Assembly (NCBI RefSeq): GCF_006345805.1
Contig: NC_042997.1
Span: 16,554,001-16,618,000, forward strand
DNA length: 64,000 nt
Reading direction: 5' to 3'
Source: Octopus sinensis
Lineage: Eukaryota
How positions within the stretch are numbered: position 1 is the stretch's first letter; every line of letters begins with the position of its first letter. The notes under the pieces are model-generated. The model saw only the letters and a list, made by a program, of their open reading frames with translations. It searched no databases and had not been told where the DNA came from. The position numbers were made by a program, and so were the translations under genes. Positions 5,296 to 36,376 of this stretch are shown piece by piece.

Positions 5296-5920
5296 GTTGG
5301 AAGAAGAGGGCCATGACATCAACGGTCAAAGGACTGACCTGAAGAGGAATCCTGAAAAGGGAAGTGTGGTGAAGACAGGACGGGGTTGGCCTCTTTTCGT
5401 CCTTCACTGGCCGTTGCAGGCTTTTGCAGCTGCCAACACCACTGCCTTCCGCCCGGTGTTTTGTGTCAACACGTGGGCTTGAACGATGAGCTCGCTCAGC
5501 ACCATTTTGTTGCCACCTGGTAACTGTTGTAGTTGCACTGACATGTCATCGGGAAAGCCATTCACAAAGGCCAGTTGTGCTACTTTCTCAAGTCACCTCA
5601 CCGGTGAGACCAGATAACACAACCAGCCTCCATACCTCCGCAGCGTATTTGTTGGCCTGTTCCACTCTCCATCTGATCTTTCCCAGCTTAGCAAAAGCGG
5701 CATACTCTCCATCTGTGTAAGCCTCTTTCAAGTGCTGTCCAATCTTCGCTGCATTCAGTTGTTCTTTATGCATTTCGAGGTACAGTGCCAGTGCACACCC
5801 CTCCAAATACAGCACCATGAGGCTCACTACATTTTCAATGCCTTGTAGCCTGGCACAACTTTGACCTTTCAAATCCAGGCTACAGTATCACCTTCACCAT
5901 AGACCCTTCACCATAAGACC
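5296..5920 (-). pseudogene. Degenerate LTR-retrotransposon (Ty3/gypsy-type) gag fragment
   Basis: Minus-strand translation across stops and frameshifts: YGEGDTVAW..ARLQGIENVVSLMVLYLEGCALALYLEM...KVAQLAFVNGFPDDMSVQLQQL; higher GC than flanks. Confidence 0.7.
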
Positions 5921-11247: not shown

Positions 11248-12080
11248 CATTTAACGTCCATTTTCCATGCTGGCATGGGTTGGACAGTTTGACTGGGGAC
11301 TGGCAAGCCAGGAGGCCACACCAGGCTCCAATCTGATCTGGCAGTTTCTACAGCTTGATGCCCTTCCTAATGCCAACCACTCCGACAGTGTAGTGGGTGA
11401 TTTTTATGTGCCACCAGCACGGGAGCTGGTCAGGCGGCACTGGCATCGGTCACGTTCAGATGGTGCTTTTTACATGTCACTGGCATGGGGAGCCAGTCAG
11501 GCAGCTCTGGCAGTGACCCACGCATGACTGAATTGTGATTTGATTTGATTTTGATTTACTTGACTCAATAGGTCTCCTCAAGCACAGAATGTCACCCGAC
11601 AATTCAAAGGTACTTTTAAATGGTTATGGGACACTGGTGTAGACTACGGCTGTGTTCTCACTTTCCTTGCTGGGTCTTCTCAAGCACAGCATATCTCCAG
11701 AGGTCTCGGTCTTTCATCATTGCCTCTGTGAGGCCCAACATTTGAAGGTCATGCTTCACCATCTCATCCCATATCTTTCTGGGTCTCCCCCATCTACGGG
11801 TTCCTTCCACTGTTAGGGAGTGACACTTTTTCACACAGCTCTCCTCATCCATACGTAGCACATGACCATACCAACGCAATCGTCTCTCTTGCACACCACA
11901 TCTGATGCTTCTTATGTCCAACATTTCTCTCAAGGTGCTGACACTCTGCCGTGTGTGCACACTGACATTACACATCCAGTGGATCATACTAGCTTCATTT
12001 CTTTCGAGCCTATGCATGTCTTCAGCAGTCACAGCCCATGTTTCACTGCCATGTAGCATGGCTGTTCGTACACATGCCCT
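11248..12080 (-). mobile_element. 5'-truncated RTE LINE: ORF2 C-terminus (11658-12080) plus 3'UTR (family B)
   Basis: ACVRTAMLHGSETW...RRLRWYGHVLRMDE...GRPRKIW...DRDLWR is a typical RTE ORF2 C-terminus; followed by family B sequence. Confidence 0.9.
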
Positions 12081-12243
12081 AAGCTTTTTATTCTGTTTAT
12101 TGTCTCTTGAGTAAGTGGAGCAGGAACACACATGGAAACGAAAGTGCTGTAGAAGAGGTCAAATATGTGTGACAAAAGATTTCCGGACAATGGACATAAA
12201 ACAAATTAGACCAGTAATAAATGAGTGAAGAAACAAACAATAT

Positions 12244-13030: not shown

Positions 13031-13290
13031 CAATGGTTCCCAAAGTGGGTGGTATTGCCCCACTAGGGGTAACGATTCATTTAAAAAGTGGGGCAATAAT
13101 GGGGTAACGATACATGTAAAAACAACAAAATAATGGGTTTGTTAGGTTAAGTTTTATTTGTTAAATAATGTTCCTTTGAATTTGCTTCAGAAAGAGGTCT
13201 ATGTTTGTGATGGTTAGTTGGGATCGGAGTGCTAGGAATGTGGCCTGGATGTCAAGGGGACAGCAGCCCCAAAAAGTTTGGGAAACACTG
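13031..13290. mobile_element. hAT (Charlie-like) MITE, 'empty' copy
   Basis: TIRs caatggttcccaaa / tttgggaaacactg; perfect 8-bp TSD ttttaaac at 13023-13030 and 13291-13298. Confidence 0.9.
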
Positions 13291-15193: not shown

Positions 15194-15657
15194 CTATCTA
15201 TCTATCCGCTCAGTCGAAGTCGACTCTCGGTTACTCGTTGGATCAGTGTCCTCCAGTCAGTTCTATCCTGGGCCGCTTCTTTCAGATTGGCTATGTCCAT
15301 TCCGGTATCACTCTTGATGGTGTCAAGCCAGCGGGTTCTTGTTCGGCCTCTTCCTCTCTTGCCACTGACCATTCCGAGCATGATGTCCTTCTCCAGGGAC
15401 TTTCTCCGCATAATATGACCAAAATATGCCAATCTATGCTTGGTGATCCTAGCTTCTAGCGACATTTTTGGCCTGATCTGCTTAAGAACTTCTCCATTGG
15501 TGAGCCACGCTGTCCATGGAATCCGTAAAAGTCTTCTCCAACACCAAAGCTCGAATGCATTAATTCTCTTCTGGTCATCTTTCTTTAGTGTCCAGGTCTC
15601 ACATCCATATGTTGCTATTGGGAGGACAATTGCATTCACCAATCTGCATTTGGTAAA
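15194..15657 (-). mobile_element. RTE-BovB-like LINE 3' end, ORF2 C-terminal fragment still open
   Basis: ORF 15202-15642 YGCETWTLKK..INAFELWCWRRLLRIPWTA..YFGHIMRR..LEKDIMLG..GKRGRGR..RVTESRLRL; (TAGA)n tail; probable TSD agc(g/a)ctaataat at 15182-15193 and 15658-15669. Confidence 0.9.
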
Positions 15658-15945
15658 AGCACTAATAATAATGGTTGTATATGTTGTTGTTTAGTCTTAA
15701 GTCAGGTCTGTTTGAGCAGAGCCTTAAACAAAGACATTCATGACAGGACCATACTGTTTATTTTCTCTTCTTTTTTTTTTATATTTTGGACCATATTGTC
15801 CAGTGTGTGTTTTTAAAGATGGTAAGGTGCAGTTTTGCAGGTTTGACTGCAACTTCTAGAACTAGGTGCAGGTGTGGCTGGTGTGGTAAGAAGTTTGTTT
15901 CCCAACCATATTTGGTTGATAGAAATAAAATGAAGCCTGTTGTGT

Positions 15946-33140: not shown

Positions 33141-34313
33141 GCTTGAAATCACATAACTGGGAGGGGTGAGAGGGACGTTGTGATGTTTATTTTTTACAAG
33201 AGGCATTAATGGCCAGTCAAATAAAATAGTCACCTCTAATTATCAAACCTGGGTCCAGTAATGGAAATAGGTTTAGGGACTAGGAGTATGTTTAAAATCT
33301 GTGAGGCTGAGGTTGGGAAGGTTAGATGCTATAAGCCCCCACCCACCACTCCTTAAAAGTAGAAGTAAAAGAGCTTAAGAATAAGGGGTTGTCATGCCTC
33401 TGTGTACCCTTTGCCTGTTTTCATTGTTGCCTTAACCAAACACGTTTAGTTTGGTAGAAGCTTACAACCTATGTTACTGTGATCACTACTCACTAAGACA
33501 AAAATATATATATTGAAATAATTTGTTCCAATGAGGTAATTATGTGGTCAGTCTATCTGCTAGAAATAGCAGCAAATCTTCCTCAAATCATATCTTACCA
33601 TCTTAAAAAATATGGACAGTGTAGTTCTAGATTACAAGACAGTTTACTTCTGGTTAAAAAACCCACCACCAACAACAACAACAATAACAACAGTTGGTTT
33701 CAGTTTCAGTCAGTCATGTTGAAAGAGTGCTGTACATATATCCTATCAGTATCATGTGGAAGTAAAATTTCTCTAGTGTAAGCAGTGGGATTACTGACTA
33801 ACTGATGAGTGTTTTGTTATGTAGCAGTGTTAAATGCAAATCCTCTATTGCTATATTTGTCTGTCCCACTAACCTAAAAGACAGAAAAGGATAATTTCAT
33901 TGAAAGTTATGTCTGTCAGGTATTCATCAGTTATGTTTATGGACCATTGTCATATAGTGCCAAATCTTTTATTAGATCTTAGTCTGTCTGTCTCTCTCTC
34001 ACTCTCTCTCTGTATATATATATATCTATTTATAGATCCAGTGTTATACAATATAGAACAAGACCTGTGAAGCTGATGAATTTTCTGATATAAAGAGTTT
34101 TGCATTGCTTCATAGTGTGGTGGCCTATACAATGTGTCTGTTGTGCTTGTCTCCAGATCAGCTCCAATGAAGCAGACTAATGATCAAAATCATTCCATCT
34201 TTCAGTAGCTCATCATTTTGCATATGTAGGACTAAATTTTCCATTCTATCTTTCCTTCTTTCATGACTGTAGATACATGAAATTTAGTTGCTATTTCTAG
34301 CGATCATGAAGAG

Positions 34314-34727
34314 CAGTGGTTCCCACAGTGGGCGGTATTGCTCCCCTGGGGACGGTGGAAAGTTCCAAGGGGGCATTGAAGAAAAGTGGGGCAATAATAG
34401 GGTAGTGATTCATGTAAAATGTGGGGCAATTATGGGGTAACGATTCATGTAAAAACAACAAAATAATGGGTTTGTTAGGTTAAGTGTTATTTGTAAAATA
34501 CAGTTGCTTTGAACTTGCTTCAGAAAGAGGTCTGTTTGTGATACTTACTTGAGCTGCCGCGCTTCGTTTTTAAATGTGTGTCGTCGGTGATACCTGGTTG
34601 ATCCTGCCAGTAGTCATATGCTTGTCTCAAAGCTTAAGCCATGCAAGTGTAAGTTCATGCCGTAAACGAATGGTGAAACCGCGAATGGCTCAGGGGGTGG
34701 CATCCTGAAAAAGTTTGGGAACCACTG
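34314..34727. mobile_element. hAT (Charlie-like) MITE carrying an rDNA-derived insert
   Basis: TIRs cagtggttccca / tgggaaccactg; TSD atgaagag / atgtagag; body matches 13031-13290. Confidence 0.9.
34591..34692 (+). rRNA. 18S rRNA 5'-end fragment (non-functional), preceded by ~45 nt of probable 5'ETS
   Basis: TACCTGGTTGATCCTGCCAGTAGTCATATGCTTGTCTCAAAG.TTAAGCCATGCA...GGTGAAACCGCGAATGGCTCA is the conserved eukaryotic SSU rRNA 5' terminus. Confidence 0.93.
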
Positions 34728-35066
34728 ATGTAGAGGATACCTCAAGACTGGGAAACTGTATGAGATTTGATATTAAGTGGATAATTTATTGGATTATCAT
34801 GGATAATCCAATGGATCTTGGGTTCAAATCCACCACAAATATTTCCTTGTAGCTTAGGCCATGACAAGTTGATATATGCTTCAGTTGTCTGTCTTTGTGG
34901 GGAACAGATATTAAATGTTCTAGAAATGTCATAGACTGGTATTATATCTTGGAAGGAAGGAAGGTGGTGGTGATGGTGGGAAATTAAACACTGGTTTTGG
35001 ACCATTGTGATTAGAAAAAAATTAATTTTATTTTATTTTAATGGCTATGCTTGTGGTTTTTTTCAG

Positions 35067-35174
35067 AACCTCTAAAACTAGTTGGAGTAAGCATTTAGAC
35101 CAGGCCTCTGCAGGCAAATCTGGTCTAAATGTTTGCAACTAAGAGTGGATTCTGTTAAAGGCATCCATAGCCAG
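35067..35174 (+). other. Candidate non-coding or poison cassette exon (108 nt) that folds into a hairpin
   Basis: ggtttttttcag acceptor, CAG|GTAATC donor, stops in all three frames, 17-bp stem 35087-35103/35120-35136. Confidence 0.4.
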
Positions 35175-36376
35175 GTAATCATCATCAGTTGAGGCACTGT
35201 TTTATGTCAGTGAGAAAAGCAATTTGATGTACAAAAATGTAGTACTATGTTTGCTGAAGTATATTTATCACACTCTAAATGTTGACAGAAATATAGTTAA
35301 ATGTCTGAATGAATACATACATATTTACTTTAGTAACATCTTTAGAGAATGATTTACACAGATATCACATTGATACAGTTTCTCTCTTGTATAAATATGT
35401 TTGTGTTTTGTTATGCTATTTAGTTGAGAAAATGATTTACATAGATAACACTGAATACATTTGAATGTAAGTTAAATTTCACAGGGAATCCTTTACCACA
35501 GATATCATAGTAATGTGGTTTCTCTCTTGCATGAATAGGTTTGTGTGCAGTTAGCATATTTCTGTAAGGTATACTTATTTTTTTTTTCTGATATCGACCT
35601 TCTTAGTTGCCTCTTACAACAAGGGATACCTCTTTTTACAAACCAGGATACATATGGTGTGCTTTGTGTGAACAATTATTTAAAATTTATGTTGGTTGAT
35701 ATAATAACCATGAGCTCAACATACTTATCAAACTATATTATCATTAATTCAAATCTTACCACACCCATTGTATAGTCTCAGAGCAAGGGAGAAAACTCTG
35801 CTTCGCTGTAGGCATACAAAGGTCATTGGCACTGTCTCTCTGACTAATTATTAATTAACTGGTTTCTATTTCATGGTTGAGTAGTTATCAAACAGATGTG
35901 CATCCACCTGTAATGACAATTCATCACAATGGCCAAATACATGCTAGCTTTCATTCCATTGTGTTGCTGTATTTTGAATACCTCATTTAACATTGCAGCA
36001 GTTCAGTTAGTAGTAGTCACTGGAAATAAATAGCCAGATCACCTTGGAATGAACAGCCATTGCCCTGTGTTGACCACTTATATTGGTTCACAAGGTCATT
36101 GGATACTGCATTGCACAAGACTTTATTAGAAAGAAAATTTTCTCTCCTATCAGCATTAAGCCATGGACATTAAGATGATGATGATTGTGGTTTATTACAG
36201 TTCATTATTTTGCAGTCTGTAATGTTAGATATTAGCTATAAAATTATGTAATTTCTAAAGAAAGTCTCATGTTATTCAAAACATTTGTGTGTGCATGCGT
36301 GTGTGTGTGTGCTTGTACATCCGTATGCTTGTACACTTCCTTTTTCTTTCTCTGTCTTACACACACACGCGCGCAC

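Follow-up and report, generated by a model that had tools for sequence, protein, structure and literature searches.

The MITE copy at 34314-34727 of the window (the whole stretch of 64,000 nucleotides that was analysed) encloses a piece of rDNA, and the question raised by this locus is whether a transposable element has captured the start of the 18S rRNA gene and multiplied with it, or whether the rDNA was added to one MITE copy where it stood. The rDNA lies between the nearly intact TIRs of the MITE (left CAGTGGTTCCCACA from 34314, right TTTGGGAACCACTG up to 34727), and the parts of the locus, together with the sister copy used for comparison, are as follows.

34306-34313, + strand: left TSD, ATGAAGAG, 7 of 8 letters as in the right copy
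34314-34327, + strand: left TIR of the MITE, 13/14 to the family majority
34314-34550, + strand: 5' body of the hAT-type MITE, 14 of 229 sites (6.1%) off the majority of 28 sisters
34551-34553, + strand: left junction GAG, which fits the 5'ETS; one nucleotide surely and up to three possibly belong also to the MITE
34551-34590, + strand: 40 nt from the 5' external transcribed spacer, in a minor variant (37/40 to L025, 36/38 to L027)
34591-34694, + strand: 18S rRNA nt 1-104, with the same sequence in L005 and in 10 of the 13 further long rDNA-like loci used for comparison
34692-34694, + strand: right-junction microhomology AGG, common to 18S and MITE
34692-34727, + strand: 3' end of the MITE including the right TIR, from comparison with the MITE family
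34728-34735, + strand: right TSD, ATGTAGAG, 7 of 8 letters as in the left copy
13031-13290, + strand: sister MITE copy with normal middle, an internal deletion of ~50 nt and a perfect TSD, TTTTAAAC

The original prediction described both TIRs and an 8-bp TSD. Both TIRs are present (14 nt; 13/14 on the left and 14/14 on the right against the family majority), and the TSD is 8 bp long but imperfect (ATGAAGAG / ATGTAGAG, only 7/8 identical). Because of its TSD and ends, the host was assigned to the hAT-type MITEs, with a target preference that we take to be nnnTAnnn, as in Buster/Charlie-type hATs. The predicted alignment of the body with the sister at 13031-13290 was recovered at 89% over 154 nt, the sister itself being ~50 nt short. 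A family majority of 310 nt was built from 28 sisters (29 were fetched and aligned, and L042 was dropped as a duplicate of L041); the sisters diverge from it by 5.3-11.7% and the present copy by 6.1% (14/229). An 8-bp TSD with at most two mismatches flanks 23 of the 25 sisters with a recognisable right end (3/28 are without such an end). The MITE is non-coding, small and present in high copy number: its exact left-end 19-mer occurs 359 times, and 1,499 candidates came up when the genome was searched with the MITE part, the top non-self match among the best 40, those scored, reaching 90%. Forty further copies, those on the + strand within the first 100 left ends of the listing, are roughly 4-22% diverged and mostly internally deleted (lengths of 123-316 in most); rDNA was found inside none of these 40, and none of the 40 left ends leads into a long element. 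The MITE family is old, and the present copy is probably immobile. The 14-nt TIR (at most two mismatches) was found at none of 40 hAT-transposase loci (best 150 of 1,386 candidates scored). The genome also holds a young, autonomous-looking hAT family of 3.8 kb with an 8-bp TSD (L224-L226 and L228, e.g., G000:C14:18215000-18220200), the copies of which are 97-99% identical, with 720-aa open frames in at least seven loci; it shares only the terminal CAGTGG with the MITE.

The Rfam model SSU_rRNA_eukarya matches the 18S piece with 88.9 bits (E 2.4e-24), its first position falling on 34591; the alignment past ~34694 is low-confidence filler, and a whole-window Rfam scan at the gathering threshold missed the piece. 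Against the genome's own rDNA, the insert corresponds to -40 to +104 of 18S (34551-34694, 144 nt), so the predicted start of the 18S piece at nt 1 (34591) stands, while its end lies at nt 104 (34694) and not at ~102 (34692). The 18S part carries no changes (0/104), the spacer part is closer to minor variants (L025 37/40, L027 36/38) than to the majority type, and 9 CpG remain within the 144-nt insert. The insert matches many rDNA loci on other contigs, i.e., a distant source with the donor intact; the exact donor copy was not found among the rDNA loci compared, and the spacer agrees with minor variants, not with the majority type. The stretch 34543-34590, taken as 5'ETS in the original prediction, is 5'ETS over its last 40 nt (34551-34590). 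TTACTT at 34545-34550 is a frequent variant within the MITE family, which places the beginning of the spacer at 34551, and 34543-34550 is better read as MITE sequence with a 2-nt change than as ETS. The proposal of rDNA or pre-rRNA as donor is borne out by these 40 nt of genuine 5'ETS upstream of 18S nt 1, the inclusion of which excludes mature 18S. The insert bears no intron or RNA-only mark, and the template was only slightly more likely rDNA itself than a cDNA of pre-rRNA. The marks of an rRNA retropseudogene or rRNA-headed SINE are absent: the piece begins within the spacer, at -40 of 18S, has no TSD or tail of its own, and is single.

At the left join, one to three letters are common to ETS and MITE. 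The microhomology suspected at the point of rejoining was found as AGG (34692-34694, 3 nt); three or more shared letters would be expected at a random join with a chance of 4.3% per junction. The replacement of MITE sequence by rDNA was described correctly, but the exchange differs in size, the MITE having lost ~32 nt, not ~45, and gained 144 nt of rDNA. Inspection of the patch ends revealed no TSD, no poly(A) and no flank duplication. Many genome matches end at query position 195 (= 34694), which could be taken for a repeated composite; their flanks show ordinary rDNA continuing past the junction.

Whether the composite has spread was addressed by searches of the 2.72-Gb genome with both junctions. 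The right-junction 23-mer (at most two mismatches), the left-junction 25-mer (at most three mismatches) and an 18S-to-TIR pattern with a gap of 10-40 nt each gave one match, the window site itself. Apart from the window site, none of the 43 matches listed (best 40 of 609 candidates scored) covered a junction. Of 60 loci with the 18S 5' end that were fetched, 41 are distinct, and overlap with the MITE family is confined to the window locus; apparent overlaps at L080, L081, L020, L025 and L076 were due to flanking repeats and disappeared against the family majority. A single copy, which the original prediction had said would reduce the case to a one-off repair patch, is thus what the genome contains.

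The order of events was obtained from related organisms, for which 4 of the 24 listed runs, all kept as contigs, were compared, one each for organisms B (X2), C (X4), D (X8) and E (X14). In organism D, which differs from the window by 6 substitutions in ~760 aligned letters (<1%), contig 29 of X8 aligns with 34451-34553 (2 other letters in 89) and then with 34692-35200 into unique flank, with exactly 32 other letters between the blocks; its depth (5.74) is similar to that of other single-copy contigs, and paralogous pieces listed in the same comparison show 7-11 differing letters in ~90, against 2 in contig 29. At the corresponding place, 10 of 16 parsed sister MITEs also have 32 nt, and by length and position the 32 letters would be the normal MITE middle. 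The match of contig 29, its 32-letter middle and the 32 nt of the sisters together indicate that organism D has the same MITE copy without rDNA. In the allele of organism D, the aligned 5' piece is moreover interrupted by a gap of 14 nt, probably beside the left junction, for which we have no explanation. In organism E, with a flank divergence of ~4-7.5% (24 differences in 320 on the left and 11 in ~290 on the right), a contig of X14 runs from the left flank through 47 nt of the MITE, so the MITE predates that split. Had insert and MITE been of equal age, the absence of changes among 104 positions of 18S would have a chance of 0.0014 at the MITE's 6.1% (0.019 at 3.75%). The MITE came first, and the rDNA patch is younger and was added in place.

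The larger claims made for the locus are not borne out. A spread rRNA-carrying MITE subfamily is not supported, both junctions being single in the genome and the orthologous MITE in organism D being without rDNA. Pack-type elements are amplified families whose cargo moves with the element, and this defining trait of a Pack-type or rRNA-carrying family, movement with the cargo, is not seen here: capture followed by transposition does not agree with one copy and with a plain MITE, rather than an empty site, at the locus of organism D. The composite has not moved since it was patched.

Support for the junctions from contigs other than the assembly differs between the two sides. Contig 16 of X2 (organism B) covers 34665-35200 with 0 differences at a depth of 49.4, from 18S through the right junction into unique flank. 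It extends 30 letters past the join on the 18S side, where the bridging rule asks for 31, and X2, which differs from the window at 34117, is possibly not independent of the assembly; a 30-letter overhang is what a 31-mer graph would be expected to give beside high-copy rDNA. Contig 9 of X2 joins the left flank to the MITE 3' end without rDNA. We take this contig for a chimera in which two copies were merged, since X2 also has window-identical 34390-34461 and patched 34665-35200 at similar depth and since the same joint is present in a separate contig of X8. Among the pieces listed, beyond which there are 3,642 more, no independent contig bridges the left junction, and no piece across either junction was among those listed for X4 and X14, which gives no verdict for organisms C and E.

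The locus is very probably a class-2 templated-sequence-insertion (TSI) repair patch, made in place in a single old MITE copy. A double-strand break in the germline would have removed part of the MITE middle; one broken end may then have paired with rDNA by a microhomology of 1-3 nt, ~140 nt would have been copied across the 5'ETS/18S boundary from rDNA or from pre-rRNA cDNA, and the new strand would have rejoined the other end at AGG. The repair pathway would be microhomology-mediated end joining (MMEJ) or template switching. The composite is predicted to be inert and without function.

The break could have another origin: a related hAT transposase may have excised the MITE, and the gap repair that followed, templated on the sister chromatid but abortive, may have switched to rDNA, in the manner of a Ds- or Pack-like birth that was not amplified. 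Such transposase-triggered capture would yield the same product and fits the nearly intact MITE ends, the frequent internal deletions in the family (123-316 nt in most of the 40 sampled copies) and the presence of the young 3.8-kb hAT family, which has 720-aa frames and whose terminus has CAGTGG in common with the MITE. We nevertheless regard it as unlikely, given that none of 40 hAT-transposase loci has the MITE's 14-nt TIR (at most two mismatches), that no young member was seen (28 sisters at 5.3-11.7% and 40 others at ~4-22%), and that the patch postdates a split of <1%, long after the burst of the family. The same nearly intact ends, together with this young hAT family and its similar terminal hexamer, are the grounds for a bolder reading, by which the composite would be a newly arisen founder of a hAT MITE with 18S cargo, cross-mobilised or mobilisable in other individuals or sister species and spreading the 5'ETS/18S processing site; we give this very little credence.

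Searches that cover one assembly, and DNA searches that score the best candidates only, would be compatible with a genuine MITE subfamily that carries rRNA and of which the remaining copies are diverged, unassembled or located in other individuals or species. Such a subfamily appears extremely improbable, however, since the whole-genome pattern counts are 1 each and any daughters of so young a patch should fall within the permitted mismatches; the listing of the 18S 5' 22-mer comprises all of its 65 places, and this MITE contains none of the 40 further distinct loci that were examined. An assembly chimera of MITE and rDNA reads might be suspected from the unbridged left junction in the pieces listed and from contig 9 of X2 (flank plus MITE without rDNA), but the intact TSD pair, a spacer of a minor variant and not of the high-copy type, and contig 16 of X2 with no difference across the right junction leave it scarcely any probability. 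If the capture were old, the plain middle in organism D would have been regained by gene conversion from another copy, for which the nearby 14-nt gap and a spacer variant that is not the present majority type could be cited; the unchanged 18S part and the 9 CpG in the insert point to youth, and we hold such a conversion to be highly unlikely.

The repair patch in the old MITE resembles the class-2 TSI/TSIP of Onozawa and Aplan (PMC5110952) as characterised in the part of that paper available to us: a short patch from a distant locus (144 nt here) in a small deletion, with microhomology, without TSD or poly(A), heritable and lineage-restricted. Experimental inserts of 73-414 bp are given there, a range into which 144 nt falls. 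The donors named in that part are LINE-1, cDNA, intronic or intergenic and mitochondrial sequences, whereas here rDNA across the 5'ETS/18S boundary was used, and the recipient differs in being an old MITE in an invertebrate. Templated insertions in worms (PMC8034613, in the part available) lend general support only. TEs carrying rDNA are compiled in section 11 and Table 2 of PMC10946416 (Pokey/mPok with IGS repeats, SINE28, SINE3, 5S SINEs and Cassandra). The present locus shares with Pokey/mPok, SINE28, SINE3 and Cassandra the enclosure of rDNA in a transposable element; as described in those sections, these are amplified and the rDNA moves with the element, whereas here there is one copy without sign of movement. 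An 18S-bearing hAT was found neither in Table 2 of that review nor in narrow literature searches, which is no proof of absence. Further copies, if they exist, would make up a hAT family with 18S cargo, of which Table 2 of the 2024 review has no example. With hAT-superfamily MITEs, the host shares a short TIR starting with CAG, an 8-bp TSD, lack of coding capacity and high copy number, and it differs in that no autonomous partner with these ends was seen in 40 transposase loci. As it stands, the finding matters little: it supplies a dated case of repair patching in the germline and a usable marker whose presence or absence separates close relatives. It also illustrates that a cargo-carrying MITE can arise without transposition, so that such calls need a check of the orthologous site.

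The original prediction also placed the insert in sense orientation to a host gene, which was not confirmed: Pfam searches of 140 of the 581 ORFs (at least 45 aa) gave no credible match, only three sub-threshold low-complexity ones, and crude exon scans of the window showed nothing recognisable. On the + strand, T slightly exceeds A and G slightly exceeds C, which hints at + transcription weakly at best. The RNA-like runs X9, X12 and X16 contain 0.10-0.24 of the words, which is word overlap alone and no evidence of expression. Three open stretches on the - strand (5407-5887, 11661-12158 and 15205-15690) resemble, by eye, retroelement remnants (gag-like; LINE reverse-transcriptase ends), and none of them had a Pfam match. 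By eye, a good-looking splice acceptor and donor surround a 108-nt stretch with stops in all frames at 35069-35176 (+), and a second acceptor lies upstream of the MITE, from 34158 onward (+); these could be non-coding exons of some transcript.

Short scattered rDNA pieces are common in the genome and derive from every tested part of the unit. The probes found 65 places at 18S nt 1 (5' 22-mer), 38 at 18S +760 and 47 at -1040, and pieces of <600 nt make up 20 of the 41 distinct loci at the 18S 5' end (where the rows L030 and L088 are one array), 10/30 at +760 and 8/30 at -1040; contact with the MITE family was seen at none of the 60 loci from the +760 and -1040 probes. By rough extrapolation, there are some hundreds of short rDNA pieces genome-wide, and the MITE family, with ~900-1,600 copies, occupies 1-2 x 10^-4 of the genome. 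About 0.1 rDNA pieces (a rough estimate) are expected in the MITE family; for repeats as a whole, which a small library masked over 36% of the window, the expectation is many. With this base rate, a single case requires no special mechanism. The window piece is thus like other dispersed rDNA fragments (orphons, rRNA pseudogenes) in being one of dozens of scattered 18S 5'-end pieces (65 places), and unlike them in lying inside a MITE and including spacer; L069, L077 and L090 start at nt 1.

A general association of rDNA pieces with inverted repeats was considered and rejected (only 2/41 and 0/60 loci). At L004 (G000:C1:15749898-15750011), ~0.84 Mb from the present locus, a 213-nt rDNA piece (-10 to +203) lies at the centre of an inverted repeat formed by its flanks (125 nt, 98% perfect), and is likely another repair product with fold-back duplication; the flanks of L025 are more loosely inverted. 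At L069 (G000:C1:98870938 region, - strand) and L077 (G000:C7:38166758 region, - strand), 18S nt 1-64 and nt 1-69, respectively, run straight into a high-copy SINE-like repeat, bracketed by duplications of 12 and 7 nt. Both have the appearance of 18S/SINE chimeric retrocopies that arose independently, comparable to the rRNA/LINE-1 chimeras of PMC13174262 (in the part of its main text available, '18S' does not occur). L080 and L026 adjoin SINE-like repeats too, without duplication. In L021, L024, L026, L075, L076, L080, L081 and L091, the 18S is preceded by ...GATGA/GATAA (often CGCGATGA or similar), not by ...CGGTGA, and L021 and L024 have further 18S variants in common; these pieces possibly represent a second or older rDNA type. 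L030/L088/L089 (G000:C21:7197593-7198032) form a tandem array with a unit of ~128 nt that corresponds to 18S nt 1 to ~128.
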